Source: Escherichia coli
GTDB lineage: Bacteria > Pseudomonadota > Gammaproteobacteria > Enterobacterales > Enterobacteriaceae
Strand: one strand, 5' to 3'
Assembly (NCBI RefSeq): GCF_024502345.1
Contig: NZ_JALDNN010000001.1
DNA length: 64,000 nt
A program made the translations under genes and the position numbers. Positions 33,557-64,000 of this stretch are shown here, piece after piece (within the stretch, counting starts at the first letter, position 1; each line of letters starts with the position of its first letter). Below the pieces are notes generated by a model. That model was not told the origin of the DNA, searched no databases, and worked only from the letters and a program-made list of their open reading frames with translations.

Positions 33557-36447
<2,891 letters not shown>

Positions 36448-37717: not shown

Positions 37718-37865
37718 ACATTGTCATCACATGTCATCGTCACTAGTGTCGATGACATCTTTTTTCCTGCATTACAGAAATTAATTTCCTTAAATAACAG
37801 CAAATTAAAAACTGGCATGATTTGTGAATGTATCGGCGCATTAACTGTCATTGCTGGAGAATTTG

Positions 37866-38393
37866 ATGAACCGTTTCATCATTGCTGACGCGAGTAAATG
37901 TATTGGTTGCCGTACCTGTGAAGTGGCGTGCGTGGTTTCTCATCAGGAAAATCAGGACTGTGCATCGCTGACCCCGGAAACATTTTTACCGCGTATCCAT
38001 GTCATTAAAGGTGTGAACATTTCCACGGCGACAGTTTGCCGTCAGTGTGAAGATGCACCGTGCGCTAACGTCTGCCCGAATGGTGCTATCAGCCGTGATA
38101 AAGGGTTTGTTCATGTGATGCAGGAACGTTGCATTGGTTGCAAAACCTGCGTTGTGGCTTGCCCGTATGGCGCGATGGAAGTGGTGGTACGTCCGGTGAT
38201 TCGCAACAGCGGCGCGGGGCTGAATGTACGGGCTGACAAAGCCGAAGCCAATAAATGCGACCTGTGCAACCATCGTGAAGACGGCCCGGCGTGTATGGCG
38301 GCTTGCCCGACCCATGCGCTAATTTGTGTCGATCGCAATAAACTTGAACAACTGAGCGCAGAAAAACGCCGCCGTACGGCGCTGATGTTCTAA
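37866..38393 (+). CDS. hydN: electron-transport ferredoxin-like protein HydN
   Basis: [22 protein letters not shown]...; four Cys clusters. Confidence 0.93.
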
Positions 38394-38545
38394 AAATCTT
38401 ACAGAACTGTTCTGGCATCAAAGGAATTCCCGGAAATATTCGTAGAATACGGAGCGGGCGGTATCGCCGACCTGTGACTGCCGGATGCGACGCTGTCGTG
38501 TCCGGCTGGACGGGTTACGCAATTCATGATGGCGGGAATAACTCA

Positions 38546-40798
38546 ATGGCAAAAAACACATCTTGCGGTGTCCAACTGCGTATTCGTGGCAAAGTGCAGG
38601 GCGTCGGTTTTCGTCCGTTTGTCTGGCAGCTGGCACAGCAATTAAATCTTCACGGCGATGTCTGTAATGACGGCGATGGCGTAGAAGTCCGGCTGCGGGA
38701 AGACCCGGAAACGTTTCTTGTTCAATTGCATCAGCACTGCCCGCCGCTGGCGCGTATTGATAGCGTCGAGCGTGAGCCGTACATCTGGTCACAACTGCCC
38801 ACTGAGTTCACCATCCGCCAGAGCGCGGGAGGTGCCATGAATACGCAAATTGTTCCCGATGCCGCTACTTGCCCTGCTTGCCTTGCCGAAATGAATACCC
38901 CAGGCGAGCGGCGTTATCGTTATCCGTTTATCAACTGTACCCACTGCGGCCCGCGTTTCACCATTATTCGCGCCATGCCTTACGACCGCCCGTTTACCGT
39001 AATGGCGGCGTTTCCGCTGTGTCCAGCCTGTGATAAAGAGTACCGCGACCCGCTCGATCGTCGCTTCCACGCCCAGCCGGTGGCCTGCCCGGAGTGTGGC
39101 CCACATCTTGAATGGGTAAGTCATGGTGAACATGCGGAACAAGAGGCGGCATTACAGGCGGCTATCGCACAGTTAAAAATGGGCAACATTGTCGCCATCA
39201 AAGGGATTGGCGGATTTCATCTTGCCTGCGATGCACGTAACAGTAACGCGGTGGCGACACTTCGGGCGCGCAAACATCGCCCGGCGAAACCGCTGGCGGT
39301 CATGTTGCCAGTGGCTGACGGTTTACCAGACGCTGCGCGCCAGTTGCTTACCACGCCCGCTGCGCCGATTGTGCTGGTGGATAAAAAATACGTACCTGAG
39401 CTTTGTGATGATATCGCCCCTGGCCTTAACGAAGTCGGAGTGATGTTGCCTGCGAACCCGCTCCAGCATTTGCTGTTACAGGAACTGCAATGCCCTCTGG
39501 TGATGACCTCCGGCAACCTGAGCGGTAAACCACCGGCTATCAGCAACGAACAGGCGCTGGCGGATTTGCAGGGCATTGCCGACGGATTCTTGATACATAA
39601 CCGCGACATCGTGCAGCGGATGGATGATTCGGTGGTGCGCGAAAGCGGCGAAATGCTGCGCCGTTCGCGGGGGTATGTGCCGGATGCGCTGGCTTTGCCT
39701 CCGGGCTTTAAAAATGTTCCGCCTGTGCTGTGTCTCGGCGCGGATCTGAAAAATACCTTCTGCCTGGTGCGCGGTGAACAAGCGGTGTTGAGCCAGCATC
39801 TGGGCGATTTAAGTGACGATGGCATCCAGATGCAGTGGCGCGAAGCGTTACGCCTGATGCAAAACATCTACGATTTCACCCCGCAATACGTTGTGCATGA
39901 CGCGCATCCGGGCTATGTCTCCAGCCAGTGGGCGCGCGAAATGAATCTGCCGACACAAACGGTGCTTCATCATCATGCTCATGCGGCGGCGTGTCTGGCA
40001 GAGCATCAGTGGCCGCTGGATGGCGGTGATGTCATTGCGTTGACGCTCGACGGTATCGGTATGGGGGAGAACGGCGCTTTGTGGGGCGGCGAGTGCCTGC
40101 GGGTGAACTATCGCGAATGCCAGCACCTGGGCGGCTTGCCTGCAGTGGCGCTTCCGGGTGGCGATTTGGCGGCGAAGCAGCCGTGGCGAAACCTGCTGGC
40201 GCAGTGCCTGCGCTTTGTGCCGGAGTGGCAGAATTACTCTGAAACGGCAAGTGTGCAACAGCAAAACTGGAGCGTGCTGGCGCGGGCTATTGAGCGTGGA
40301 ATTAACGCGCCGCTGGCGTCATCGTGTGGGCGTTTGTTCGATGCTGTGGCGGCGGGACTGGGCTGTGCGCCAGCCACGTTAAGTTATGAAGGTGAAGCGG
40401 CTTGTGCTCTGGAGGCGCTCGCAGCCTCATGTGACGGAGTGACGCATCCGGTGACGATACCGCTGGTGGACAATCAACTGGATCTCGCCACTTTCTGGCA
40501 GCAGTGGCTGAACTGGCAGGCTTCGGTTAATCAACGCGCGTGGGCGTTTCATGATGCGCTGGCGCAGGGTTTTGCCGCGTTGATGCGTGAGCAGGCCACG
40601 ATGCGTGGTATCACTACGCTGGTATTTAGCGGCGGGGTTATTCATAACCGTTTGCTGCGTGCACGTCTGGCGCATTATCTCGCTGATTTCACATTGCTCT
40701 TTCCACAGAGTTTACCGGCGGGTGATGGCGGTTTGTCTTTGGGGCAGGGGGTTATTGCTGCGGCGCGTTGGTTAGCGGGTGAAGTCCAGAACGGATAA
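38546..40798 (+). CDS. hypF: carbamoyltransferase HypF (hydrogenase maturation)
   Basis: Starts [27 protein letters not shown] (acylphosphatase domain), two zinc-finger CxxC pairs, YrdC and Kae1-like domains. Confidence 0.93.
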
Positions 40799-40814
40799 AA
40801 CGTGTTGCATCTGA

Positions 40815-41120
40815 ACACCATTATTGCCGGATGCGGCATAAACGCCTTATCCGGCCTACACATGCGTCCCCGTAGGTCGGATAAGACGCGCCAGCGTCGC
40901 ATCCGACATTTTGGGCACAGTAGCTGTATGTGACATGAACGCATTATGTGACCAACACATGCGCTCCCCGTAGGTCGGATAAGACGCGTCAGCGTCGCAT
41001 CCGACATTTTGGGCACAGTAGCTGTATGTGACATGAACGCATTATGTGACCAACACATGCGCTCCCCCGTAGGTCGGATAAGACGCGCCAGCGTCGCATC
41101 CGACATTTTAGGCACAGTAG
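40815..41120. repeat. REP/BIME array: one REP followed by ~2.6 tandem copies of a ~98-bp unit
   Basis: Repeated CCCCGTAGGTCGGATAAGACGCGCCAGCGTCGCATCCGACATTTTGGGCACAGTAGCTGTATGTGACATGAACGCATTATGTGACCAACACATGCG units starting near 40861, 40958 and 41056. Confidence 0.85.
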
Positions 41121-41125
41121 CCCAC

Positions 41126-42259
41126 CTACACCGTCAACATTTTCAACAATCCAAATGCCTCTTTCATCCGATCCTCACTGACCACAAAGGCGCGAAGCTG
41201 GTCAGCATCGTCAACGCCGCGCGCCACCATTCCCTGGCGTTCGGTATTAATTTGCCAGCGTAAATCCTGACGCTGGGTTTCGCCTGCCAGATGCAGCGGT
41301 AATTCCGGCGTTTTGATTTTCACCAGCATCGCCGGGAGTTTCAGTGGCGTGTTATTGCCGAGAAGATTTTTTGCCAGCACCATCGCGCTAAGTTGAATCG
41401 GCTGGAGGAACGGCAATACCTGACCGTTAATTTCCGCGCAATCGCCCAGCGCGTAAATATCGGTATTACTGGTTTGCAGATAACTATCGACGCAAACGCT
41501 GCGATTAATCGTCAGCCCGGCGCGTCGTGCCAGGGCGGTTTCCGGGCGCAGTCCGGTGGCGGCAATTACCGCATCCACTTCGATGCTACGCTGGCGGTCC
41601 AGCGTTGCCAGAATGCCAGAATCCGTTTTTTCCAGCCCCTGTAACTGAGATTTCAACAGCAGATGAACGCCCATCTCCGTCAACCGATGCTGCAAGCGGC
41701 TGCTTACTTCCGGTGGCATTAACGACGCCAGAATACTGGCAGCGTTGTCGATTAGCGTGACCGCTTTGCCTGCACGACAAAAATCCATCGCCAGTTCGCT
41801 ACCAATCAAACCACCGCCAACAATCAACACGCGTCGGGCATCCCGCAGTTGCGTTTCACAGGCGCGATACTCTTGCTGACTATTTAACGTCAGCATTAAC
41901 TCACGCCCAGGCACAGGCGGGACAAAGGCACTGGCACCGGTTGCCAGTACTAGCTTGTCGTATTGCCACTGATTATTCTGGCTTTTCACCACACGGGCTT
42001 CGGCATCGATATCCGTCACCCAGGTTTGTGGAAACAGGTGCAGATTAAACTGCTCGGCAAATTCACCCGCCGTCTGGCGGGTAAGGTCATCGGCACGTTG
42101 CCCCTGACTGATAACATGGCTGAGGTCAGGTTTGTTGTACTCATCCATGCTGTCGGCGGCAATCAGGGTTAATGGAATAGTGGCGTCCTGTTTGCGAATA
42201 TTTTTCACCAGTTGGCGGGCGGCGAAGCCCGAACCGATGATCACAATGCCGTTACTCAT
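41126..42259 (-). CDS. norW: NADH:flavorubredoxin reductase NorW
   Basis: 377 aa with FAD/NAD GxGxxG motifs. Confidence 0.95.
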
Positions 42260-43695
42260 TTTGCCTCCGATGCCAGTTCGTCAAAGACGTCTTTGCCGAG
42301 GGAGCATTCCGGGCAGAGGAAGTTATCCGGGACTTCACTCCACGGCGTTCCTGGCGCAACGTCCTGCATTGGCTCGCCTTTTGCCGGATCGTAAATCCAC
42401 TGGCAGACGCTGCACTGCATTCGTGGGCCGAGGTCAGCCGTCGTCGTGGCAGAGGTTTCTTCTTTAACTACCGTATTCACCGTGCTCTGCGGCAGCGGCG
42501 CGAGCGCCCACTGACGGGCGATTTCGCGACCGTGTTCACGGCATAACTCCAGAGCGTCCTGGTCTGGTCGCCATTTGGCTTTCAGGCTGAGCGACATTTC
42601 GAAACCCGCATCCTGCAGGCGCGTGGAAAGGCGATCCACCGCACCGCCGCTCCAGCCGTGAGAGCCGAAAGCACTGGCGCGTTTGTTACGGAAGCGTAAT
42701 CCGGTCATCTCCTCCACCAGCCCGGCGATTTTCGGCATCATCACGTTATTCATCGTCGAAGTGCCGACCAGCACGCCTTTTGAGCGGAAGACATTGGTCA
42801 GGATTTCGTTTTTATCGCTTCGGGCGACGTTGAAAATTTTCACCGCCACGCGTGGGTCGGTTTCCGCAATCCCCTGGGCGATAGCGTCAGCCATCATGCG
42901 GGTGTTATTCGACATGGTGTCGTAGAAAATGGTGATTCTGTCTTCCTGATAATCAGCGGCCCACTTCAGGTACAGCTCGACAATTTGCGTCGGGTTATCG
43001 CGCCAGACCACGCCGTGGGAGGTCGCTATCATATCGACTGGTAAGTTAAAGCCCAGGATCTCGGTAATTTTCGGCGTTACCAGGCGGCTGAACGGCGTCA
43101 GGATATTGGCGTAGTAACGCTGGCACTGCTCGAAAAGCTCCGTCTGATCCACTTCATCGTTGAACAGATGCTCGTCGCAGTAGTGCTGACCGAAAGCATC
43201 GTTACTGAACAGCACCGCGTCGCCTGTCAGGTAAGTCATCATGCTGTCCGGCCAGTGCAGCATTGGCGTTTCGACAAAAATGAGCTGTTTGCCGTTGCCG
43301 ATATCCAGCGTGTCACCAGTTTTCACCACATTAAAATTCCACTCCGGATGATGGTGATGACCATTTATCGAGTCGATAGCGTTGGCAGTACAGTAAATCG
43401 GCGTATCGGGAATTTGCGCCATCAGTTCGGTCAGCGCCCCAGCGTGGTCCTCTTCTGCATGGTTAATCACGATGTAATCGATATCCGCCAGATCGATTTC
43501 ATTACGCAGGTTCTGCACAAATTCGCGGCTGAATTTATGGTCGACGGTGTCGATCAGCACGTTTTTTTCTTCGCGGATGAGGTAGCTGTTGTAACTGCTG
43601 CCGCGCAGCGTTTTATATTCCGTACCGTGAAAATCACGCACTTCCCAGTCACGTTGACCAACCCAATGAATGTTATTTTTCACCACAATAGACAT
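42256..43695 (-). CDS. norV: anaerobic nitric oxide reductase flavorubredoxin NorV
   Basis: 479 aa; metallo-beta-lactamase-like, flavodoxin and C-terminal rubredoxin (CxxC...CxxC). Confidence 0.95.
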
Positions 43696-43741
43696 AGCAA
43701 CCTCAATTTATTCAGCGTGTTCTAAAAAGATGTCTTGCTAA

Positions 43742-43758
43742 TTGCAGATTACGTGCCA
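43742..43758 (-). promoter_or_regulatory. sigma54 promoter of norVW
   Basis: Minus strand reads TGGCAC-gtaat-cTGCA with correct -24/-12 spacing. Confidence 0.75.
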
Positions 43759-43813
43759 GTTTTTTATCTGATTGTTTTTACTCTATAAATAAAATTATGC
43801 TCATTAATGAGTA

Positions 43814-43869
43814 GTCAAAATGACTATCAATCAAATGGTCGATATGACAATATCTATAGTCAAATTGAC
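43814..43869. promoter_or_regulatory. three NorR enhancer-binding sites (GT-N7-AC type)
   Basis: GTCAaaaTGAC (43814-43824), GTCgataTGAC (43838-43848), GTCAaatTGAC (43859-43869). Confidence 0.8.
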
Positions 43870-43881
43870 AGTGAGGCAAAG

Positions 43882-45396
43882 ATGAGTTTTTCCGTTGATG
43901 TGCTGGCGAATATCGCCATCGAATTGCAGCGTGGGATTGGTCATCAGGATCGTTTTCAGCGCCTGATCACCACGCTACGTCAGGTGCTGGAGTGCGATGC
44001 GTCTGCGTTGCTACGTTACGATTCGCGGCAGTTTATTCCGCTTGCCATCGACGGTCTGGCAAAGGATGTACTCGGTAGACGCTTTGCGCTGGAAGGGCAT
44101 CCACGGCTGGAAGCGATTGCCCGCGCCGGGGATGTGGTGCGCTTTCCCGCAGACAGCGAATTGCCCGATCCCTATGACGGTTTGATTCCTGGGCAGGAGA
44201 GTCTGAAGGTTCACGCCTGCGTTGGTCTGCCATTGTTTGCCGGGCAAAACCTGATCGGCGCACTGACGCTCGACGGGATGCAGCCCGATCAGTTCGATGT
44301 TTTCAGCGACGAAGAGCTACGGCTGATTGCTGCGCTGGCGGCGGGAGCGTTAAGCAATGCGTTGCTGATTGAACAACTGGAAAGCCAGAATATGATGCCA
44401 GGCGATGCCACGCCGTTTGAAGCGGTGAAACAGACGCAGATGATTGGCTTGTCCCCTGGCATGACGCAACTGAAAAAAGAGATTGAGATTGTGGCGGCGT
44501 CCGATCTCAACGTCCTGATCAGCGGTGAGACGGGAACCGGTAAGGAGCTGGTGGCGAAAGCGATTCATGAAGCCTCGCCACGGGCGGTGAATCCGCTGGT
44601 CTATCTCAACTGTGCCGCACTGCCGGAAAGTGTGGCGGAAAGTGAGTTGTTCGGGCATGTGAAAGGAGCGTTTACTGGCGCTATCAGTAACCGCAGCGGG
44701 AAGTTTGAAATGGCGGATAACGGCACTCTGTTTCTGGATGAGATCGGCGAGTTGTCGTTGGCATTGCAGGCCAAGCTGCTGAGGGTGTTGCAGTATGGCG
44801 ATATTCAGCGCGTTGGCGATGACCGTAGTTTGCGGGTCGATGTGCGCGTGCTGGCGGCGACTAACCGCGACTTACGCGAAGAGGTGCTGGCAGGGCGATT
44901 TCGCGCTGACTTGTTTCATCGCCTGAGCGTGTTTCCACTTTCGGTGCCGCCGCTGCGTGAGCGGGGCGATGATGTCATTCTGCTGGCGGGGTATTTCTGC
45001 GAGCAGTGTCGTTTGCGGCTGGGGCTCTCCCGCGTGGTATTAAGTGCCGGAGCGCGAAATTTACTGCAACACTATCGTTTTCCGGGGAACGTGCGCGAAC
45101 TGGAACATGCTATTCATCGGGCGGTAGTGCTGGCGAGAGCCACCCGCAACGGCGATGAAGTGATTCTTGAGGCGCAACATTTTGCTTTTCCTGAGGTGAC
45201 GTTGCCGCCGCCAGAAGCGGCGGCGGTGCCCGTTGTTAAGCAAAACCTGCGTGAAGCGACAGAAGCGTTCCAGCGTGAAACCATTCGCCAGGCACTGGCA
45301 CAAAATCATCACAACTGGGCTGCCTGCGCGCGGATGCTGGAAACCGACGTCGCCAACCTGCATCGGCTGGCGAAACGTCTGGGATTGAAGGATTAA
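43882..45396 (+). CDS. norR: NO-responsive sigma54-dependent activator NorR
   Basis: Starts [18 protein letters not shown]...; GAF domain, AAA+ domain ([14 protein letters not shown]), C-terminal HTH. Confidence 0.93.
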
Positions 45397-46358
45397 ATAA
45401 TCCCGGCCTGATAGAAATCCTGCAGGTTAATTGCGCCGGTGAGTTTGCCGTTTTCATCCACCACCGGTGCGGCAGTGATTTTGCGCTTCATCAGGATCTC
45501 TTTGGCGTCGATGGCGCGACTTTGCGCCTGTAACGTGGTGCCGCCTGTCGTCATCGCTTCATTAACTGGCGTGGTGAGTGCCCCGCCGCCTACCAGCCAG
45601 CGACGTAAATCGCCGTCGGTAAAGACGCCTTGTACCTGTTGTTGAGCGTCACATACCGCCACCAGCCCCAGACCGGTGCGGCTGAGTTCCAGCATCGCAT
45701 CCATCACGCTGGCGGTTAACGCCACCTGTGGGATGGCATCGTCACGGCGCATCAGATGATGCACTTTATTCAGCAAGCGAGCGCCCAGTGCCCCGGCTGG
45801 GTGGGAGCGGGCAAAATCTTCTTCATTAAATCCGCGCGCCTGCATGACCGCCATCGCCAGCGCGTCACCCATCATCAGGGTATTGACGGTGCTGGAGGTC
45901 GGCGCAAGGTGCATCGGGCAGGCTTCGCGTTCTACGGAGATATCCAGCACCGCTTTTGCCGCCAGGCCCAGCGGTGACGTCGGTTTGCCGGTCATCGCCA
46001 GCAGCGCGATAGATTTATCTTCCAGACGCGGAATAATCAGATCCAGTTCCTTCGCGCCACCGGAGTAAGAGATAAACAGCATCACATCGCGGCTTTCAAT
46101 CATCCCCAGATCGCCGTGCAGTGCTTCTGCCGGATGGACAAAAAAAGCCGGTGTGCCGGTACTGGCAAGTGTTGCGGCGATTTTCTTACCAATGTGGCCC
46201 GATTTGCCAATTCCCGAAACCACCACTTTGCCTTCGCAGTGCAGGATGATATTGGCGGCGCGAACAAAATCATCGCCCAGACGTTCCGGTAAACGGCTTG
46301 CTTCCTGCAACTCCAGCATTAACGTCTGACGTCCCGCGTTCAGTAGTGCTTCACTCAT
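45393..46358 (-). CDS. gutQ: D-arabinose 5-phosphate isomerase GutQ
   Basis: 321 aa; SIS domain plus tandem CBS domains. Confidence 0.93.
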
Positions 46359-47124
46359 TGCTCTCTCCGGTTATGATCACATCGATCCCTTTCTCTTCCA
46401 GCGCCTGACGAAACGCCGGATCGATACCTGCGTCGGTAATCAGCTTATCGACGCTTTCAAGACTGCAAACTACGTTGGGGCTTTTACGGCCAAACTTTGA
46501 TGAGTCCGCCATCAAAATCACTTCGCGCGCGGCATTGCACATTGCCTTACTGACGGTATAAACCTCGTTGAAGGTGGTTACGCCCGCATTGAGATCGATG
46601 CCGTCGGTGCCCATAAACAATTTATCGAAACTGAAATGTTCGAAGGCATTCTCTGCCAGCTGTCCGTGAAATGAGGCCGATTTTTTACGAAACGTTCCGC
46701 CTGGCATCAGGATAGTTTGTTCGTTATCCAGTTCGGATAGCGCATTGACGATATGCAGGCTGTTGGTCATCACCGTGATGTTATTAAAGCGCGAGAGCAG
46801 GGGAACCATCTGCAAAACGGTACTGCCAGCATCAAGAATGATCGAATCGCCATCATGGATAAAACTAACGGCAGCTTCTGCAATCAGCTCTTTCTTGTGG
46901 GTGTTGATGAGTGTTTTATGATCGATAGGCGGATCGGATTCCTCTTTATTCAACACCACTCCGCCATAAGTACGAATGACGGTTCCGGCATGTTCCAGAA
47001 TGACCAGATCTTTGCGAATGGTTGTGCCTGTGGTGTCAAAGTATTGCGCCAATTCTTCAACCGAGCATTTACCCTGCTTTTGCAGATACTCCAGAATGGC
47101 GGCCTGACGCTGACGAGGTTTCAT
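46351..47124 (-). CDS. srlR: DeoR-family glucitol operon repressor SrlR (GutR)
   Basis: 257 aa; N-terminal HTH, DeoR C-terminal domain. Confidence 0.93.
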
Positions 47125-47190
47125 GGGCGTGATTACCTGATTTAGGTTTCAAAATGATAACTTCGCAAGCAAGTAACATTCACAACGAAA

Positions 47191-47550
47191 TTATCCACGT
47201 TTCAGTTTAAGCGCCAATGATAGAGCATTCTGTGATAGTGGATCATGGGGAAAGATCACATCGGGCTGTAAATCACCCGCATGCATACCGGTAATTGCGG
47301 GAATTTTTTGCGGTCGGGCGAAGACGGTCAGTCCTTTCATAAACAAGGTGTCGACGATGCGCTGCTGATCGTCCAGCGCGATGGCGACCACGACCCGCGG
47401 TTTAAAGCGCCCGCTGGAACGGCCCACGCCAACCCGCCCTTGCTGGCATAGTGTGTCGAAGGCACGGTTAAAACGAGAAATTTGCCAGCCGCCTAAGGCC
47501 AGTTGCGCACACCAGGCGATAACGGCGACGGTGATGAGTGCGGATACCAT
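47191..47550 (-). CDS. gutM: glucitol operon activator GutM
   Basis: 119-aa protein with N-terminal membrane segment. Confidence 0.9.
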   Translation of the reverse strand: MVSALITVAVIAWCAQLALGGWQISRFNRAFDTLCQQGRVGVGRSSGRFKPRVVVAIALDDQQRIVDTLFMKGLTVFARPQKIPAITGMHAGDLQPDVIFPHDPLSQNALSLALKLKRG

Positions 47551-47654
47551 AACTTTTCCTTAATGTAGTGGCGGAAGTCCTGTATGCCTGATGAGCGTAG
47601 CGCATCAGGCATTCTATAGTCTCACGGAGATCCTTAATGGATCTCCGCTGTTGA

Positions 47655-48809
<1,155 letters not shown>

Positions 48810-48819
48810 GTTTCAGCCT

Positions 48820-50357
<1,538 letters not shown>

Positions 50358-50594
50358 TTATTGTTTTATTACCAAACGGCAACCTAATCTAATCAGATTG
50401 AAAGATTTAAAAGTGTTATTTTGATCGCAAAATGAAAGATAAATATTTTAATTTGAAAGTTTGAGTAAAAGGATAGCGAGGAGAATGAGTTGAGTTATGT
50501 AAAGTCCGTATCGGGCAGTGACTACCGCTTCCTTGTGCGGGGCGTGATGCTTTACCATACTTGCCCCTGGTTGAATCTGTTAAATGGACCCCTC

Positions 50595-51680
50595 ATGTTC
50601 AAGCGTCGTTATGTAACATTGCTTCCCCTTTTTGTGTTGCTTGCCGCCTGTAGCAGCAAGCCAAAACCTACTGAGACTGAAACGACCACCGGAACGCCGT
50701 CTGGCGGCTTCCTGCTTGAGCCGCAGCACAATGTGATGCAGATGGGCGGTGACTTCGCCAATAACCCGAATGCCCAGCAGTTCATCGACAAAATGGTGAA
50801 CAAACACGGTTTCGATCGTCAGCAGTTGCAGGAAATTCTGTCCCAGGCGAAGCGTCTGGATTCGGTACTGCGGCTGATGGATAACCAGGCACCAACGACA
50901 TCGGTGAAACCGCCATCAGGTCCGAACGGCGCATGGCTGCGTTATCGCAAAAAATTTATTACGCCGGACAACGTGCAGAACGGTGTGGTTTTCTGGAATC
51001 AGTATGAAGATGCGTTGAATCGCGCGTGGCAGGTGTATGGCGTACCGCCGGAAATTATCGTCGGGATTATCGGCGTTGAAACCCGCTGGGGGCGCGTGAT
51101 GGGGAAAACTCGCATCCTCGATGCGCTGGCAACGCTGTCATTTAACTACCCACGCCGCGCGGAGTATTTCTCTGGCGAGCTGGAAACCTTCCTGTTGATG
51201 GCGCGCGACGAGCAGGACGATCCGCTCAATCTGAAAGGTTCCTTTGCCGGGGCGATGGGCTACGGACAGTTTATGCCGTCGTCTTACAAACAATATGCAG
51301 TGGATTTCAGCGGCGATGGGCATATCAACCTGTGGGATCCGGTTGATGCGATCGGTAGCGTGGCGAATTATTTCAAAGCGCACGGCTGGGTGAAAGGCGA
51401 TCAGGTCGCGGTAATGGCAAACGGTCAGGCTCCAGGCTTGCCAAATGGCTTCAAAACCAGGTACAGCATTTCGCAGCTTGCCGCGGCAGGTTTAACGCCA
51501 CAGCAGCCGCTGGGCAACCATCAACAAGCCAGCCTGCTGCGTCTGGATGTTGGAACAGGTTACCAGTACTGGTACGGTCTGCCGAACTTCTACACCATTA
51601 CCCGTTATAACCACAGTACCCATTACGCAATGGCGGTCTGGCAGTTAGGACAAGCCGTGGCGCTGGCGCGCGTGCAGTAA
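50595..51680 (+). CDS. mltB: membrane-bound lytic murein transglycosylase B
   Basis: Starts MFKRRYVTLLPLFVLLAACSS (lipoprotein signal); track ORF has an upstream in-frame extension. Confidence 0.92.
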   Translation: MFKRRYVTLLPLFVLLAACSSKPKPTETETTTGTPSGGFLLEPQHNVMQMGGDFANNPNAQQFIDKMVNKHGFDRQQLQEILSQAKRLDSVLRLMDNQAPTTSVKPPSGPNGAWLRYRKKFITPDNVQNGVVFWNQYEDALNRAWQVYGVPPEIIVGIIGVETRWGRVMGKTRILDALATLSFNYPRRAEYFSGELETFLLMARDEQDDPLNLKGSFAGAMGYGQFMPSSYKQYAVDFSGDGHINLWDPVDAIGSVANYFKAHGWVKGDQVAVMANGQAPGLPNGFKTRYSISQLAAAGLTPQQPLGNHQQASLLRLDVGTGYQYWYGLPNFYTITRYNHSTHYAMAVWQLGQAVALARVQ

Positions 51681-51824
51681 CTATTTGCAAGAGGGGGGCG
51701 TGAGCTTCCCTCTGGCTAATCAGCTTTTTTCTGAATCCTCCTCGTAAAATTGCAACGCCAACACCATCTTCCTGACGAAAGTGCTATCTTGTCCGGCATA
51801 AATTTTTGACTGACAGAGGTTGTG

Positions 51825-52322
51825 ATGACTGACAGTGAACTGATGCAGTTAAGCGAACAGGTTGGGCAGGCGCTGAAAGCCCGTGGCGCAACCGTAACAA
51901 CTGCTGAGTCTTGTACCGGCGGTTGGGTAGCGAAAGTGATTACCGATATTGCCGGTAGCTCCGCCTGGTTTGAACGCGGATTTGTCACCTACAGTAACGA
52001 AGCCAAAGCGCAGATGATCGGCGTACGCGAAGAGACGCTGGCGCAGCATGGCGCGGTGAGCGAACCCGTCGTGGTGGAAATGGCGATAGGCGCCCTGAAA
52101 GCGGCTCGTGCTGATTACGCCGTGTCTATTAGTGGTATCGCCGGGCCGGATGGCGGCAGTGAAGAGAAGCCTGTCGGCACCGTCTGGTTTGCTTTTGCCA
52201 CTGCCCGCGGTGAAGGCATTACCCGGCGGGAATGCTTCAGCGGCGACCGTGATGCGGTGCGCCGTCAGGCTACTGCGTATGCATTGCAGACCTTGTGGCA
52301 ACAATTTCTACAAAACACTTGA
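51825..52322 (+). CDS. pncC: NMN amidohydrolase PncC (CinA-like, YgaD)
   Basis: 165 aa starting MTDSELMQLSEQVGQ... Confidence 0.92.
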   Translation: MTDSELMQLSEQVGQALKARGATVTTAESCTGGWVAKVITDIAGSSAWFERGFVTYSNEAKAQMIGVREETLAQHGAVSEPVVVEMAIGALKAARADYAVSISGIAGPDGGSEEKPVGTVWFAFATARGEGITRRECFSGDRDAVRRQATAYALQTLWQQFLQNT

Positions 52323-53463
<1,141 letters not shown>

Positions 53464-53500
53464 TCGTTCGTTATTGATGATAATAGATAATGTGTGCACG

Positions 53501-53550
53501 GACGGTCCCCTCGCCCCTTTGGGGAGAGGGTTAGGGTGAGGGGAACAGGC
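53501..53550 (+). terminator. GC-rich imperfect hairpin between recA and recX (partial terminator/attenuator)
   Basis: GGTCCCCTCGCCCCTTTGGGGAGAGGGTTAGGGTGAGGGGAAC can fold into long stems. Confidence 0.45.
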
Positions 53551-53705
53551 CAGCACTGGCGTGAAAAATTACTCTCACCTCGATCCTCTAACGAATTGGG
53601 CCTGCGGGAACATTCTGCACACTCATTGACTATTAAATCTGTTTATCAGCAAAACCTGGGTCGCATCTGCGGCCCTTTTGCTTTTTTAAGTTGTAAGGAT
53701 ATGCC

Positions 53706-54206
53706 ATGACAGAATCAACGTCCCGTCGCCCGGCATATGCTCGCCTGTTGGATCGTGCGGTACGCATTCTGGCGGTGCGCGATCACAGTGAGCAAGAACT
53801 GCGACGTAAACTCGCGGCACCGATTATGGGCAAAAATGGCCCAGAAGAGATTGATGCTACGGCAGAAGATTACGAGCGCGTTATTGCCTGGTGCCATGAA
53901 CATGGCTATCTCGATGACAGCCGATTTGTGGCGCGCTTTATCGCCAGCCGTAGCAGCAAAGGTTATGGACCTGCGCGTATTCGCCAGGAACTGAATCAGA
54001 AAGGTATTTCCCGCGAAGCGACAGAAAAAGCGATGCGTGAATGTGACATCGACTGGTGCGCACTGGCGCGCGATCAGGCGACGCGAAAATATGGTGAACC
54101 TTTGCCAACTGTCTTTTCAGAAAAAGTTAAGATCCAGCGTTTTCTGCTCTATCGTGGCTATCTGATGGAAGATATCCAGGATATTTGGCGAAATTTTGCC
54201 GACTGA
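53706..54206 (+). CDS. recX: RecA regulator RecX
   Basis: 166 aa. Confidence 0.93.
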
Positions 54207-54333
54207 ACGCATACGGTATTTTACTTCCCAGTCAAGAAAACTTATCTTATTCCCACTTTTCAGTTACCAGCCCGGCGGTTAAGACACGCTGGAGCTGGTG
54301 GCGATATTTCGTTAGCTTGATTTCAGGATAATT

Positions 54334-56964
54334 ATGAGCAAGAGCACCGCTGAGATCCGTCAGGCGTTTCTCGACTTTTTCCATAGTAAGGGACATCAGG
54401 TAGTTGCCAGCAGCTCCCTGGTACCCCATAACGACCCAACTTTGTTGTTTACCAACGCCGGGATGAACCAGTTCAAGGATGTGTTCCTTGGGCTCGACAA
54501 GCGTAATTATTCCCGCGCTACCACTTCCCAACGCTGCGTGCGTGCGGGTGGTAAACACAACGACCTGGAAAACGTCGGTTACACCGCGCGTCACCATACC
54601 TTCTTCGAAATGCTGGGCAACTTCAGCTTCGGCGACTATTTCAAACACGATGCCATTCAGTTTGCATGGGAACTGCTGACCAGCGAAAAATGGTTTGCCC
54701 TGCCGAAAGAGCGTCTGTGGGTTACCGTCTATGAAAGCGACGACGAAGCCTACGAAATCTGGGAAAAAGAAGTAGGGATCCCGCGCGAACGTATTATTCG
54801 CATCGGCGATAACAAAGGTGCGCCATACGCATCTGACAACTTCTGGCAGATGGGTGACACTGGTCCGTGCGGCCCGTGCACCGAAATCTTCTACGATCAC
54901 GGCGACCACATTTGGGGTGGCCCTCCGGGAAGTCCGGAAGAAGACGGCGACCGCTACATTGAGATCTGGAACATCGTCTTCATGCAGTTCAACCGCCAGG
55001 CCGATGGCACGATGGAACCGCTGCCGAAGCCGTCTGTAGATACCGGTATGGGTCTGGAGCGTATTGCTGCGGTGCTGCAACACGTTAACTCTAACTATGA
55101 CATCGACCTGTTCCGCACGTTGATCCAGGCGGTAGCGAAAGTCACTGGCGCAACCGATCTGAGCAATAAATCGCTGCGCGTAATCGCTGACCACATTCGT
55201 TCTTGTGCGTTCCTGATCGCGGATGGCGTAATGCCGTCCAATGAAAACCGTGGTTATGTACTGCGTCGTATCATTCGTCGCGCAGTGCGTCACGGTAATA
55301 TGCTCGGCGCGAAAGAAACCTTCTTCTACAAACTGGTTGGTCCGCTGATCGACGTTATGGGCTCTGCGGGTGAAGACCTGAAACGCCAGCAGGCGCAGGT
55401 TGAGCAGGTGCTGAAGACTGAAGAAGAGCAGTTTGCTCGTACTCTGGAGCGCGGTCTGGCGTTGCTGGATGAAGAGCTGGCAAAACTTTCTGGTGATACG
55501 CTGGATGGTGAAACTGCTTTCCGTCTGTACGACACCTATGGCTTCCCGGTTGACCTGACGGCTGATGTTTGTCGTGAGCGCAACATCAAAGTTGACGAAG
55601 CTGGTTTTGAAGCAGCAATGGAAGAGCAGCGTCGTCGGGCGCGCGAAGCCAGCGGCTTTGGTGCCGATTACAACGCAATGATCCGTGTTGACAGTGCATC
55701 TGAATTTAAAGGCTATGACCATCTGGAACTGAACGGCAAAGTGACCGCGCTGTTTGTTGATGGTAAAGCGGTTGATGCCATCAATGCAGGCCAGGAAGCT
55801 GTGGTCGTGCTGGATCAAACGCCATTCTATGCGGAATCCGGCGGTCAGGTTGGTGATAAAGGCGAACTGAAAGGCGCTAACTTCTCCTTCGTGGTGGAAG
55901 ATACGCAGAAATACGGCCAGGCGATTGGTCACATCGGTAAACTTGCTGCGGGTTCTCTGAAAGTGGGCGACGCTGTGCAGGCTGATGTTGATGAGGCTCG
56001 TCGCGCCCGTATTCGTCTGAATCACTCCGCAACGCACCTGATGCACGCTGCGCTGCGCCAGGTTCTGGGTACTCATGTATCGCAGAAAGGTTCACTGGTT
56101 AACGACAAGGTGCTGCGCTTCGACTTCTCACACAACGAAGCGATGAAACCAGAAGAGATTCGTGCGGTCGAAGACCTGGTGAACGCACAGATTCGTCGCA
56201 ATTTGCCGATCGAAACCAACATCATGGATCTCGAAGCGGCGAAAGCGAAAGGTGCGATGGCGCTGTTCGGCGAGAAGTATGATGAGCGCGTACGCGTGCT
56301 GAGCATGGGCGATTTCTCCACCGAGCTGTGTGGCGGTACTCACGCCAGCCGCACTGGTGATATTGGTCTGTTCCGCATCATCTCTGAATCGGGTACTGCT
56401 GCAGGCGTTCGTCGTATCGAAGCGGTAACCGGAGAAGGTGCTATCGCCACCGTTCATGCAGACAGCGATCGCTTAAGCGAAGTCGCACATCTGCTGAAAG
56501 GCGATAGCAATAATCTGGCTGATAAAGTGCGCTCAGTACTGGAACGTACGCGTCAGTTAGAAAAAGAACTACAACAGCTTAAAGAACAAGCTGCCGCACA
56601 GGAGAGCGCAAATCTTTCCAGTAAGGCAATTGATGTTAATGGTGTTAAGCTGTTGGTTAGCGAGCTTAGCGGTGTTGAGCCGAAAATGTTGCGTACCATG
56701 GTTGACGATTTAAAAAATCAGCTGGGGTCGACAATTATCGTGCTGGCAACGGTAGCCGAAGGTAAGGTTTCTCTGATTGCAGGCGTATCTAAGGACGTCA
56801 CAGATCGTGTGAAAGCAGGGGAACTGATTGGTATGGTCGCTCAGCAGGTGGGCGGCAAGGGTGGTGGACGTCCTGACATGGCGCAAGCCGGTGGTACGGA
56901 TGCTGCGGCCTTACCTGCAGCGTTAGCCAGTGTGAAAGGCTGGGTCAGCGCGAAATTGCAATAA
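54334..56964 (+). CDS. alaS: alanine--tRNA ligase
   Basis: 876 aa starting [24 protein letters not shown]... Confidence 0.98.
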
Positions 56965-57198
56965 TATAAGCGTCAGGCAATGCCGTGGACTCGCTTCACG
57001 GCATTCGCATTAACGCTATCGACAACGATAAAGTCAGGTTGAAGTTGTGTATATCGGCTAAACTTAGGTTTAACAGAATGTAATGCCATGACTGCTTAGA
57101 TGTAATGTGTTTGTCATTGCTTACTTTTTGGCGTTATATGATGGATAATGCCGGGATACAGAGAGACCCGACTCTTTTAATCTTTCAAGGAGCAAAGA

Positions 57199-57384
57199 AT
57201 GCTGATTCTGACTCGTCGAGTTGGTGAGACCCTCATGATTGGGGATGAGGTCACCGTGACAGTTTTAGGGGTAAAGGGCAACCAGGTACGTATTGGCGTA
57301 AATGCCCCGAAGGAAGTTTCTGTTCACCGTGAAGAGATCTACCAGCGTATCCAGGCTGAAAAATCCCAGCAGTCCAGTTACTAA
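57199..57384 (+). CDS. csrA: carbon storage regulator CsrA
   Basis: 61 aa [61 protein letters not shown]. Confidence 0.98.
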
Positions 57385-57699
57385 TCTTTCCGCGTCTCAT
57401 CTTTATCGGTGAGACGCACCCTCAAAATTTCTCCTTCACTCTATAGTCTTTTCGCTTTACTCCCGTTCATTCAACTTAAGTCTCCATTTTTTTACATTAC
57501 TGCTATCTGTCAGACCTCCGTTTTTCTGTTGATAAAACACTCTTTTTGACGTTTTTACAGACTAATTGAGCGTGAAGTGTGCAAACGATAAAAGTGTGGG
57601 AAAAATTGTTTGACTTATAAGTCTCAGAAAGTAATATGTGCGCCACGCAGCGACGATGAGCGATAAACAAGTTCTTCGAAGCACTCGTAAGAGGCGTGT

Positions 57700-57792
57700 G
57701 GTGAGGTGGCCGAGAGGCTGAAGGCGCTCCCCTGCTAAGGGAGTATGCGGTCAAAAGCTGCATCCGGGGTTCGAATCCCCGCCTCACCGCCA
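57700..57792 (+). tRNA. serV: tRNA-Ser (anticodon GCU)
   Basis: GGTGAGGTGGCCGAGAGG...CTGCTAA...GGTTCGAATCC...CACCGCCA; long variable arm. Confidence 0.95.
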
Positions 57793-57795
57793 TTT

Positions 57796-57872
57796 GCATC
57801 CGTAGCTCAGCTGGATAGAGTACTCGGCTACGAACCGAGCGGTCGGAGGTTCGAATCCTCCCGGATGCACCA
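57796..57872 (+). tRNA. tRNA-Arg (anticodon ACG), copy 1
   Basis: GCATCCGTAGCTCAGCTGGATAGAGTACTCGGCTACGAACCGAGCGGTCGGAGGTTCGAATCCTCCCGGATGCACCA. Confidence 0.95.
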
Positions 57873-58007
57873 TATTCTCCGTAACCTTCAGCGATGAAGG
57901 TATGGAAGAGGTGGCGGTACTAACCGCAGGCACCAGGGAGAATAACGTTGCTTTAGCAACGGCCCGAAGGGCGAGCCGCAAGGCGAGTAATCCTCCCGGA
58001 TGCACCA
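57873..58007 (+). repeat. ~135-bp spacer repeat unit ending in a duplicated tRNA-Arg 3' fragment (unit 1)
   Basis: Ends ...AATCCTCCCGGATGCACCA, identical to the T-arm/acceptor 3' end of tRNA-Arg. Confidence 0.8.
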
Positions 58008-58071
58008 TCTCTTACTTGATACGGCTTTAGTAGCGGTATCAAAAAATCTGCAGTAAAGTAAGTTTCCCGAT

Positions 58072-58148
58072 GCATCCGTAGCTCAGCTGGATAGAGTACT
58101 CGGCTACGAACCGAGCGGTCGGAGGTTCGAATCCTCCCGGATGCACCA
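58072..58148 (+). tRNA. tRNA-Arg (ACG), copy 2
   Basis: Identical 77-nt sequence. Confidence 0.95.
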
Positions 58149-58210
58149 TCTCTTACTTGATATGGCTTTAGTAGCGGTATCAATATCAGCAGTAAAATAA
58201 ATTTCCCGAT

Positions 58211-58287
58211 GCATCCGTAGCTCAGCTGGATAGAGTACTCGGCTACGAACCGAGCGGTCGGAGGTTCGAATCCTCCCGGATGCACCA
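58211..58287 (+). tRNA. tRNA-Arg (ACG), copy 3
   Basis: Identical 77-nt sequence. Confidence 0.95.
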
Positions 58288-58422
58288 TATTCTCCGAAAT
58301 CTTCAGCAATGAAGATATCGAAGAGGTAGCGGAATTAACCGCAGGCACCAGGGAGGATAACGTTGCGCCAGCAACGGCCCGAAGGGCGAGCCGCAAGGCG
58401 AGTAATCCTCCCGGATGCACCA
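58288..58422 (+). repeat. spacer repeat unit with tRNA-Arg 3' fragment (unit 2)
   Basis: Near-identical to unit 1. Confidence 0.8.
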
Positions 58423-58485
58423 TCTCTTACTTGATATGGCTTTAGTAGCGATATCAATATCAGCAGTAAAATAAATTTTCCCGAT

Positions 58486-58562
58486 GCATCCGTAGCTCAG
58501 CTGGATAGAGTACTCGGCTACGAACCGAGCGGTCGGAGGTTCGAATCCTCCCGGATGCACCA
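58486..58562 (+). tRNA. tRNA-Arg (ACG), copy 4
   Basis: Identical 77-nt sequence. Confidence 0.95.
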
Positions 58563-58695
58563 TATTCTCCGAAATCTTCAGCAATGAAGATATCGAAGAG
58601 GTAGCGGAATTAACCGCAGGCACCAGGAAGGATAACGTTGCTTTAGCAACGGCCCGAAGGGCGAACGCCAGTGAGTCATCCTCCCGGATGCACCA
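58563..58695 (+). repeat. spacer repeat unit with degenerate tRNA 3' fragment (unit 3)
   Basis: Related to units 1-2; ends ...CATCCTCCCGGATGCACCA. Confidence 0.75.
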
Positions 58696-58842
58696 TCTTC
58701 TCCAAAAAATTTCCTTCAAAAATATCTCATTTTTAAATAACTACTTTATCCATTTCCTGAATTTTCTTCTCCTTCGCCATCAGCGACAAAATCAAGCAAT
58801 TACGCTAAAGTAGCGTCATATTTTTCGACTTGCGAGAAGACC

Positions 58843-59409
58843 ATGTACGAGCGTTATGCAGGTTTAATTTTTGATATGGATGGCACAATCCTGGATACGG
58901 AGCCTACGCACCGTAAAGCGTGGCGCGAAGTATTAGGGCACTACGGTCTTCAGTACGATGTTCAGGCGATGATTGCGCTTAATGGATCGCCCACCTGGCG
59001 TATTACTCAGGCAATTATTGAGCTGAATCAGGCCGATCTCGACCCGCATGCGTTAGCGCGTGAAAAAACAGAAGCAGTAAGAAGTATGCTGCTGGATAGT
59101 GTCGAGCCGCTTCCTCTTGTTGAAGTGGTGAAAAGTTGGCATGGACGTCGGTCAATGGCGGTAGGAACGGGGAGTGAAAGCGCCATCGCTGAGGCATTGC
59201 TGGCTCACCTGGGATTACGCCGTTATTTTGACGCCGTCGTCGCTGCCGATCACGTCAAACACCATAAACCCGCGCCAGACACATTTTTGTTGTGCGCGCA
59301 GCGTATGGGCGTGCAACCGACGCAGTGTGTGGTCTTTGAAGATGCCGATTTCGGTATTCAGGCGGCCCGTGCAGCAGGCATGGACGCTGTGGATGTTCGC
59401 TTGCTGTGA
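58843..59409 (+). CDS. yqaB: HAD-family sugar phosphatase YqaB
   Basis: 188 aa; HAD motif I FDMDGT near N-terminus. Confidence 0.92.
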   Translation: MYERYAGLIFDMDGTILDTEPTHRKAWREVLGHYGLQYDVQAMIALNGSPTWRITQAIIELNQADLDPHALAREKTEAVRSMLLDSVEPLPLVEVVKSWHGRRSMAVGTGSESAIAEALLAHLGLRRYFDAVVAADHVKHHKPAPDTFLLCAQRMGVQPTQCVVFEDADFGIQAARAAGMDAVDVRLL

Positions 59410-59834
59410 GTGAAGCGTTATCGCTTTTCTCGTTGTTTGCCAGTAGTTTTCTCAGCGCTACACTATTACCCGGCAACTCCGAAGTCGTGCTGGTGGCAAT
59501 GTTGCTTTCCGGGATCAGTCATCCCTGGGTTTTAGTTTTAACAGCAACAATGGGTAATAGCCTTGGAGGGTTAACTAACGTTATCCTTGGGCGTTTCTTT
59601 CCATTGCGTAAAACATCGCGCTGGCAAGAGAAAGCTACCGGCTGGCTGAAACGCTATGGTGCAGTCACGCTATTATTAAGCTGGATGCCCGTGGTTGGCG
59701 ATTTACTGTGTCTGTTAGCGGGATGGATGCGCATCTCCTGGGGGCCGGTAATCTTTTTTTTGTGCCTTGGTAAAGCGTTACGCTATGTTGCAGTTGCAGC
59801 AGCGACCGTTCAGGGCATGATGTGGTGGCACTAA
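59406..59834 (+). CDS. yqaA: DedA/SNARE-associated inner membrane protein YqaA
   Basis: 142-aa membrane protein; overlaps yqaB stop. Confidence 0.9.
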   Translation: MSEALSLFSLFASSFLSATLLPGNSEVVLVAMLLSGISHPWVLVLTATMGNSLGGLTNVILGRFFPLRKTSRWQEKATGWLKRYGAVTLLLSWMPVVGDLLCLLAGWMRISWGPVIFFLCLGKALRYVAVAAATVQGMMWWH

Positions 59835-59879
59835 TTGTAGGCCTGCACATATGGTCACCATTACAGTTATGCTAATTAA

Positions 59880-61463
<1,584 letters not shown>

Positions 61464-61470
61464 CAGAAAA

Positions 61471-61543
61471 GAAAAAGGCCACTCGTGAGTGGCCAAAATT
61501 TCATCTCTGAATTCAGGGATGATGATAACAAATGCGCGTCTTT
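61471..61543 (-). ncRNA. micA: small RNA MicA (SraD)
   Basis: Minus strand reads GAAAGACGCGCATTTGTTATCATCATCCCTGAATTCAGAGATGAAATTTTGGCCACTCACGAGTGGCCTTTTT. Confidence 0.9.
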
Positions 61544-61612
61544 CATATACTCAGACTCGCCTGGGAAGAAAGAGTTCAGAAAATTTTTAAAAAAATTACC
61601 GGAGGTGGCTAA

Positions 61613-62128
61613 ATGCCGTTGTTAGATAGCTTCACAGTCGATCATACCCGGATGGAAGCGCCTGCAGTTCGGGTGGCGAAAACAATGAACACCCCGCATG
61701 GCGACGCAATCACCGTGTTCGATCTGCGCTTCTGCGTGCCGAACAAAGAAGTGATGCCAGAAAGAGGGATCCATACCCTGGAGCACCTGTTTGCTGGTTT
61801 TATGCGTAACCATCTTAACGGTAATGGTGTAGAGATTATCGATATCTCGCCAATGGGCTGCCGCACCGGTTTTTATATGAGTCTGATTGGTACGCCAGAT
61901 GAGCAGCGTGTTGCTGATGCCTGGAAAGCGGCAATGGAAGACGTGCTGAAAGTGCAGGATCAGAATCAGATCCCGGAACTGAACGTCTACCAGTGTGGCA
62001 CTTACCAGATGCACTCGTTGCAGGAAGCACAGGATATTGCGCGTAGCATTCTGGAACGTGACGTGCGCATCAACAGCAACGAAGAACTGGCGCTGCCGAA
62101 AGAGAAGTTGCAGGAACTGCACATTTAG
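61613..62128 (+). CDS. luxS: S-ribosylhomocysteine lyase LuxS
   Basis: 171 aa [14 protein letters not shown]... with HTLEH metal-binding motif. Confidence 0.97.
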
Positions 62129-62154
62129 TCAGTAAACTATCTTCACAATTAATT

Positions 62155-62181
62155 GAAAAAAGCCAGTTCAAATGAACTGGC
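62155..62181 (-). terminator. rho-independent terminator after emrB (hairpin shared with the luxS 3' end)
   Basis: GCCAGTTCA-aa-TGAACTGGC stem-loop followed on the minus strand by TTTTTTC. Confidence 0.7.
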
Positions 62182-62191
62182 TTAGTTGTAC

Positions 62192-63730
62192 TTAGTGCGC
62201 ACCGCCTCCGCCGCCACCTGCGCCAAAGGGCGGTTTAGCAAACCACACCAGCCCCAGCAAGACGAGGAATATCCCGGCTGACATCCAGAAGATCTCATTT
62301 GCGGAAATAATCAGCCCCTGATTGGTGATCTGTTGGGCAATCCAGCCTGATGCCTGCTGTTGTGTCATCCCAAGCCCTTCCAGTTGACTGTACATCGCCT
62401 GGGCGTTTGGGTTAAACGGGTTTACCGACTCGGTTAACTGCGCATGGTGCATCGACTCGCGGTTGGTCCACATGGTCGTGGTTATCGACGTGCCGATAGA
62501 CCCCGCCAGCGTACGCGTAAAGTTGGAGAGGCTCGATGCCGCCGCCAGTCGTTCCGGTGGCAAACCAGACAGCGTAATGGTGGTCAGCGGCATAAAGAAG
62601 CAGGCCACCGCAAACCCCTGGATAAACTGCGGCCAGGCCGACGCGCCAAAATCCATGCCCGGTTCAAAGGTATAGGCACGCCAGTAGAAGCAGACGGCAT
62701 ACATAATAAAGCTGAAGGTTACCAGCCGCCGCATATCCAGTTTATGCGCGAAGCGGCCGATAATCGGCGACAGTATCACTGGAATAATCCCTACCGGCGC
62801 AGAGGCCAAACCTGCCCAGGTCGCCGTGTAACCGTAGACCTCCTGCAACAACTGCGGCAGCAGAACAATCGCGCCGAAGTAGAGCATATACGCGAGGCTG
62901 ATACACAAACAGCCGATGGTGAAGTTGCGCGACTTAAACAACGACAGATCGACTATCGGGTTATCGTCGGTCAGCTCCCAGACAATCAGGAAGCAGATAG
63001 CCACCACCGCCACCACGGTAAGGATGATAATTTCCTGTGATGAAAACCAGTCCAGCTCTTTACCGCGGTCGAGCATAATCTGCAGGCTGCCGATACCAAT
63101 AACCAGCAGTGCCAGCCCCACGGCATCAATCCGCCGCCGTTCGGTGCGGGTTTCACGTCCGCGCAGGGTTTGCAGGGTCATCAACACCACCGCCACGCCA
63201 ATCGGCACGTTGATGAAGAATATCCAGCCCCAGTGGTAATTATCGCTGATATACCCGCCGAGGATTGGGCCGCAAATTGGCGCGACAATCACCGTCATCG
63301 ACCACAACGCCAGCGCGATTGAGCGTTTGGCTGGCGGGTAATTATTCAGCAATAGACTTTGCGAAAGCGGGATCAACGGCCCGGCGACAATCCCCTGAAT
63401 CACGCGGAAGAAGATCAGCATATTCAGGCTGCTGGAGACACCACACGCCCACGACGCAATAGCAAAGGCGATGGTTGACCAGAGGAACAGTTTCACTTCC
63501 CCGACGCGCTTTGCCAGCCAGCCGGTAAGCGGGATCGAGATGGCATTCGCCACCCCGAAAGAAGTGATTACCCACGTTCCCTGGCTGAGCGATGAGCCCA
63601 GATTCCCGGCGATAGTGGGGATCGCCACGTTAGCAATGGTGGAGTCCAGCACCTGCATGAATGTCGCTAGTGACAGCGCAATCGTCATAATGACCAGTTG
63701 CGCGCCTTCCAGCGGTTTTTGCTGTTGCAT
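62192..63730 (-). CDS. emrB: multidrug efflux MFS transporter EmrB
   Basis: Starts MQQQKPLEGAQLVIMTIALSLATFMQ...; 14-TMS MFS; track ORF has 3 extra upstream codons. Confidence 0.95.
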   Translation of the reverse strand: MQQQKPLEGAQLVIMTIALSLATFMQVLDSTIANVAIPTIAGNLGSSLSQGTWVITSFGVANAISIPLTGWLAKRVGEVKLFLWSTIAFAIASWACGVSSSLNMLIFFRVIQGIVAGPLIPLSQSLLLNNYPPAKRSIALALWSMTVIVAPICGPILGGYISDNYHWGWIFFINVPIGVAVVLMTLQTLRGRETRTERRRIDAVGLALLVIGIGSLQIMLDRGKELDWFSSQEIIILTVVAVVAICFLIVWELTDDNPIVDLSLFKSRNFTIGCLCISLAYMLYFGAIVLLPQLLQEVYGYTATWAGLASAPVGIIPVILSPIIGRFAHKLDMRRLVTFSFIMYAVCFYWRAYTFEPGMDFGASAWPQFIQGFAVACFFMPLTTITLSGLPPERLAAASSLSNFTRTLAGSIGTSITTTMWTNRESMHHAQLTESVNPFNPNAQAMYSQLEGLGMTQQQASGWIAQQITNQGLIISANEIFWMSAGIFLVLLGLVWFAKPPFGAGGGGGGAH

Positions 63731-63746
63731 CACACGCACCTCTGGA

Positions 63747-64000
63747 TTAGCCAGCGTTAGCTTTTACGATATCGTCGATCAGTTTATTGACAGGTGCCAG
63801 GCTGATTTCACGCGCGGTACTTACCGCAACCGGTGTGGAACGTACTTTATTTGCCAGTACCTGACCGTCACGGTTAGTGGTATTGACGCTCACCAGCGTG
63901 GACAAACCGATACGCAGCGGATATTGCTCCAGCTGTTTCTGGTCCAGTTCGATACGCACAGGCAGACGCTGAACGACTTTGATCCAGTTACCGGTCGCAT
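63747..64000 (-). CDS. emrA: multidrug efflux membrane-fusion protein EmrA, C-terminal part (5' end beyond window)
   Basis: Protein ends ...LAPVNKLIDDIVKANAG; the reading frame continues past position 64000. Confidence 0.9.
   Translation of the reverse strand, partial: ATGNWIKVVQRLPVRIELDQKQLEQYPLRIGLSTLVSVNTTNRDGQVLANKVRSTPVAVSTAREISLAPVNKLIDDIVKANAG

Follow-up and report, generated by a model that had tools for sequence, protein, structure and literature searches.

The gshA-luxS intergenic region carries micA

The window, by which we mean the whole 64,000-nt stretch of Escherichia coli DNA analysed here, contains gshA and luxS in the same orientation and, between them on the opposite strand, what is almost certainly the canonical E. 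coli micA (sraD) gene (Table 1). A cmscan search returned the Rfam family MicA (RF00078) at 61473..61544 of the minus strand, with 83.9 bits against a gathering score of 41 (E = 2e-12). The match runs over model positions 1-75 of 75 and is not truncated, that is, it covers the full model. In the record of K-12 MG1655, micA (b4442) is a 73-nt ncRNA lying between luxS and gshA, on the opposite strand to both. Alignment of the gshA-luxS intergenic region of the window to that of K-12 showed identity at 198 of 198 bases, micA promoter included, and places the gene at 61472..61544. The E value, together with the 100% identity to an experimentally characterised gene, rules out a chance match. In K-12 the identical sequence has been established to encode an Hfq-binding transcript of ~72 nt that represses OmpA synthesis (PMC1851643, PMC4618604). 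MicA itself is hence already known, and the present copy is indistinguishable from the K-12 reference and adds nothing new: RNA, promoter, intergenic sequence, flanks, orientation and predicted structure are all shared with b4442 (RF00078). There is no difference inside the element, and the only ones around it are synonymous-looking SNPs in the flanking genes. Transcription of micA and target pairing in this strain are accordingly extrapolated from K-12.

The initial annotation had described a complete MicA sequence on the minus strand, terminator hairpin included, right behind gshA, with the luxS start ~70 bp further on. Its identity, strand, completeness and position are borne out by the Rfam search, the fold, the terminator scan and the K-12 alignment. 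The terminator scan places the hairpin within the MicA sequence, on the minus strand. The distances hold as well, with 8 nt from the gshA stop codon (61461..61463) to the MicA 3′ end and the luxS ATG 68 nt beyond the MicA 5′ end. It had also named divergence in the seed as an observation that would speak against it. The alignment to the K-12 micA locus revealed none, RNA and promoter being 100% identical. Only its coordinates, 61471..61543, need a correction. The locus is right, yet both ends are offset by 1 nt, so that the interval omits the +1 G at 61544 and takes in one base beyond the five-U tail, which is immaterial.

Table 1. Features of the micA locus in window coordinates.
Feature	Coordinates	Strand	Details and basis
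gshA (glutamate-cysteine ligase)	59907..61463	plus	TTG start; convergent with micA; ORF listing, RefSeq annotation, K-12 order
Long luxS P1 leader	61281..61612	plus	starts at a G at -332 from the luxS AUG, inside gshA; antisense to the whole of micA
micA (MicA/SraD sRNA)	61472..61544	minus	73 nt; +1 is the G at 61544; 3′ end at 61472, after five U
Rho-independent terminator	61472..61494	minus	7-bp GC-rich hairpin at 61477..61494 (MicA nt 51-68) and U5 tail at 61472..61476
A/U linker AAUUUU	61495..61500	minus	MicA nt 45-50; unpaired in the fold; separates the two stem-loops
SL1, internal stem-loop	61501..61522	minus	MicA nt 23-44; MFE and centroid fold, alifold consensus
MicA seed	61521..61538	minus	MicA nt 7-24; pairs with ompA mRNA -22..-5, including the Shine-Dalgarno sequence
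micA sigma-E-type promoter	61551..61578	minus	-35 TGAACTC (61572..61578), N16, -10 TCTGA (61551..61555), N6, +1 G at 61544
A/T-rich tract, UP-like element	61580..61596	minus	upstream of the micA -35 box; other strand is part of the luxS leader
luxS (S-ribosylhomocysteine lyase)	61613..62128	plus	divergent from micA; ORF listing, RefSeq annotation

Both flanking genes are named in the RefSeq annotation of genomes that are 100% identical at the locus. Over gshA-micA-luxS we counted 41 differences from K-12, 37 of them in gshA and the other 4 towards the 3′ end of luxS, from 62029 onwards. The difference in gshA nearest to micA is at 61421, and no difference at all is found in 61422..62028. As a separate observation, 31 of the 41 differences are packed into ~600 bp of gshA (60170..60783, about 5% divergence), a cluster that suggests a recombination tract.

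Conservation of the locus

The 22-nt core of the seed (ACGCGCATTTGTTATCATCATC) has an exact match in at least 120 species-representative genomes, from genera that include Escherichia, Citrobacter, Enterobacter, Pantoea, Erwinia, Serratia, Yersinia, Rahnella, Hafnia and Edwardsiella. Since the homologue set was gathered by exact seed match, invariance of the seed inside this set is circular. The results on promoter, synteny and structure are not, and independent support for the seed comes from the number of species and from the Rfam consensus, in which the seed positions are upper-case and model positions 1-28 are conserved. The gene, its promoter geometry and its gshA and luxS flanks recur in more than 110 Enterobacterales species. 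Among the matches listed, both flanks are present at 112 loci, and at every one of them micA runs antisense to gshA as well as to luxS; eight further loci, incomplete in sequence on one side, stand outside this synteny count. Likewise, among the matches listed, micA and luxS are divergent in every species with luxS on the locus (117/117). The gap between the micA +1 and the luxS start in the homologue loci measures 67-179 nt, with a median of 72.

In E. coli itself, the micA locus is present in 5,423 of 5,426 complete genomes, and in 5,097 of these 5,423 the 73-nt MicA is 100% identical. One genome of the 5,426, that of E. coli R13 (NZ_CP107151.1), lacks 39 nt of the luxS-gshA intergenic region (2445..2580 in the R13 locus sequence). 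The deletion corresponds approximately to window positions 61525..61563; the -10 box of micA is lost together with most of the seed region, while the -35 box and all sequence from CATCATCC onward are kept. It may represent a natural micA-null allele, or else an error of assembly.

A sigma-E-type promoter at fixed distance from the transcription start

The micA promoter motif was read directly from the sequence, and it matches the sigma-E promoter signature described for micA (PMC1851643). In K-12 the +1 of micA has been mapped, and transcription of the gene depends strictly on sigma-E, with induction upon envelope stress and in stationary phase (PMC1851643). Among the matches listed, the geometry of the promoter (-35 box, 16-nt spacer, -10 box, 6-nt discriminator) is invariant across all 116 loci whose flanking sequence is long enough; the homologous -35 boxes are of the GAAC/AAAC type and the -10 boxes read TCTNA. 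The A/T-rich tract upstream of the -35 box is conserved too, with the pattern TTTTTTtaaAA kept in 116 homologues among the matches listed. An AT-rich element at the micA promoter has been noted before (Fig. 3 of PMC1851643).

The transcription start bears on a protein-coding reading of the locus. The ORF listing contains a 48-aa frame on the minus strand (61400..61546, MKDAHLL...) whose ATG overlaps the micA +1, and the region could on this ground be taken to encode a small protein. We consider this reading hardly credible. Transcripts have been mapped to begin at the G of that ATG and would therefore lack the start codon. Moreover, the frame has no Shine-Dalgarno sequence, it continues past the terminator into the antisense strand of gshA, and it is broken among homologues, whose lengths of 71-78 nt result from indels that are not multiples of three.

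Terminator and RNA structure

The 73-nt RNA folds at -20.5 kcal/mol with a z-score of -2.98, and none of 200 shuffled sequences folds as well. In the predicted fold, the 5′ region (nt 1-22) is mostly single-stranded, with only a weak helix of 4 pairs. It is followed by two stem-loops, separated by the A/U linker, and by the poly-U tail of the terminator. Fold, terminator scan and alifold thus agree on the architecture that defines the MicA family. The linker is nearly all A/U across homologues and corresponds to the published Hfq-binding site (PMC4618604).

Folding 78 distinct homologue RNAs together with alifold led to a consensus of the same structure, in which 96-100% of cells are paired. 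The terminator stem is invariant in the 78 homologues, except for one compensatory exchange of the closing pair (U-A/A-U), and variation in SL1 amounts to a few G-U or A-U changes. Because the stems are almost invariant, covariation support is minimal, and the evidence for the MicA structure comes instead from conservation, thermodynamics and published probing.

The hairpin starts only 13 nt past the gshA stop codon, and it could be argued that hairpin and U-run are nothing but the terminator or a 3′ stabiliser of gshA, any likeness to an sRNA being incidental. However, the terminator scan called hairpin and U-run on the minus strand only. On the plus strand, AAAATTTC and not a U-run comes after the hairpin, which can thus be at best a weak terminator for gshA, in agreement with the published luxS transcripts that read through it. 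Such a reading also has no place for the 50 nt upstream of the hairpin and the sigma-E promoter, both conserved at fixed geometry in 116/116 species among the matches listed, or for an Rfam match that spans the full model. It is effectively refuted, with a negligible chance of being right, and we retain the hairpin as the terminator of micA.

The seed is complementary to the ompA ribosome-binding region

Pairing was assessed with MicA nt 1-24 and the ompA mRNA of K-12, the ompA gene of the source strain lying outside the window. MicA nt 7-24 and positions -22..-5 of ompA (GGAUGAUAACGAGGCGCA) form a predicted duplex of -21.7 kcal/mol; among 2000 dinucleotide-shuffled versions of the seed, only 5 reach such a value. 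The seed does not differ from that of K-12 and shows the ompA complementarity typical of the MicA family, and the computed duplex reproduces the published interaction. A test with the full-length RNA against the ompA leader (duplexfold) was discarded in favour of this seed test. As intramolecular structure is ignored, it gave an unrealistic interaction of 65 nt that 33 of 1000 shuffles equalled.

luxS leaders cross micA

In K-12, the P1 transcript of luxS is driven by a sigma-S-type promoter and its start was mapped by 5′-RACE to a G at -332 (Udekwu 2010, PMC2956633). The corresponding base of the window, 61281, is a G, and the stretch around it (61218..61420) is free of differences from K-12. 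A leader starting at this point (61281..61612) holds the complete complement of MicA. The initial annotation had placed the 5′ region of MicA close to the luxS leader, which is right but understated, since the published P1 leader fully crosses micA (PMC2956633). MicA drives the processing of the long leaders by RNase III (Udekwu 2010). A shorter luxS species, R3, has an overlap of ~14 nt with the 5′ end of MicA and needs both MicA and RNase III to accumulate (PMC2956633). As luxS transcripts cross micA, MicA is a cis-antisense partner of luxS leaders in addition to a trans-acting sRNA.

These facts allow the roles to be weighted the other way round, with MicA acting mainly in cis, to control luxS and AI-2 through leader antisense and RNase III or through transcriptional interference of the two divergent promoters, and its trans role on omp genes being secondary. 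The entire micA complement carried by the P1 leader, the dependence of R3 on MicA and RNase III (PMC2956633) and the divergent micA-luxS order, kept in 117/117 species among the matches listed, are all in line with it. Nevertheless, we judge it very unlikely. It leaves unexplained the near-invariance of MicA nt 1-27 across Enterobacterales families, which is better explained by many trans targets because a cis-antisense pair is complementary whatever its sequence. In addition, overexpression of MicA left the level of LuxS protein unchanged, and a review of 2015 still terms the effect of MicA on luxS unclear (PMC2956633 and PMC4618604, respectively).

With trans repression as the main function of MicA, a secondary cis role on luxS has a modest chance of being real, well short of an even one. 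In the same vein, the conserved divergent order of micA and luxS may reflect a functional coupling in which sigma-E-driven transcription of micA, or the duplex of MicA with the leader, tunes luxS and AI-2 in envelope stress; we advance this tentatively, as something rather improbable. The idea of such a coupling was reportedly put forward in 2010. If true, it would tie membrane stress to quorum signalling.

Two further observations concern luxS itself. A sigma-70-like site on the plus strand (61522..61551) was considered as a luxS promoter and rejected. Its predicted start lies at ~61558, as compared with ~61531 for the published R3 end, and the promoter scan found 1 site where 0.7 are expected by chance, so that we treated it as a chance occurrence. 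On the other side of the gene, the window, K-12 and SC467 have emrB directly after luxS (gap 62129..62191 in the window). At this place, where the window and K-12 have emrB, O145:H28 strains and R13 carry a two-gene insert (2378..3501 in the O145 locus sequence, 77..1893 in the R13 locus sequence) that encodes an RNA ligase family protein and an AAA/ATP-binding protein, the latter a pseudogene in O145.

Proposed mechanism and related systems

The mechanism that we propose for this copy is drawn from what has been established for K-12, whose micA sequence is identical. Under envelope stress or in stationary phase, sigma-E would become active and transcribe micA. Hfq would bind the A/U linker and, probably, the U tail, and the seed would pair with the ribosome-binding region of ompA, phoP, lamB, ompX and other envelope-related mRNAs. 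Pairing would block translation and accelerate decay of these mRNAs, leading to a smaller load of outer-membrane proteins. On the cis side, MicA and the long luxS leader would form a perfect duplex, to be processed by RNase III to a shorter luxS mRNA.

MicA represses ompA, phoP and other envelope mRNAs in an Hfq-dependent manner, and constitutes a feedback arm of the envelope-stress response together with RybB and MicL (PMC4618604). As a part of the repressing arm of sigma-E, it links envelope stress to PhoPQ, to biofilm formation and possibly to luxS. RybB and MicL, both sigma-E dependent and Hfq-binding, resemble MicA in having a sigma-E promoter, a 5′ seed and omp or lpp mRNAs as repressed targets (PMC4618604). 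In contrast, their sequences and loci are unrelated to those of MicA, and only MicA overlaps the leader of a neighbouring gene in antisense. The Rfam scan of the window gave no match to the RybB or MicL families.

The cis side of MicA has its own counterparts. Some cis-encoded antisense RNAs direct the processing of an overlapping mRNA by RNase III, as does GadY with gadX-gadW. MicA has in common with this type the perfect complementarity and the RNase III cleavage that gives a shorter mRNA (for MicA, PMC2956633). Unlike them, its main documented role is in trans, and its cis pairing is without a demonstrated effect on protein output.

Annotation of micA and the wider window

In PGAP-annotated RefSeq records of E. 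coli, no feature lies under the micA match; the ncRNA is listed in the curated K-12 record only. Given that PGAP places no feature at the locus, micA is easily missed outside K-12. The practical value of the present analysis is hence one of annotation: the micA label is due in this genome.

The Rfam scan found no other RNA families in window positions 1..55000. Upstream of yqaB lies a tRNA cluster (57700..58559) in which one long-arm tRNA precedes four others that all have the same Rfam score. The cluster corresponds to the tRNA-Ser and four tRNA-Arg annotated in E. coli SC467.

The stretch 44000..64000 belongs to the core genome, and its best match among complete E. coli genomes is only 98.9% identical. 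It follows that the source strain has no close relative among the 5,426 complete RefSeq E. coli genomes. The strain could come from a divergent lineage or else from Shigella, a group outside this 5,426-genome collection.

At its other end, the window carries a rare integrative accessory island (1..~17600) beside ygbA and fhlA. Its GC content drops to 41-47% and is low at about 10000..18000. Coverage of window positions 1-22000 reaches 80% or more in only 5 of the 5,426 complete E. coli genomes. The best match to the island, in E. coli MSB1_9D, is 99.7% identical, with the window about 1.2 kb longer. In MSB1_9D the island is annotated with two tyrosine integrases, a JAB-domain protein, a DUF2787 protein, a truncated CbtA toxin, an N-6 DNA methylase, a restriction subunit S, an AAA ATPase and a Fic/DOC protein.
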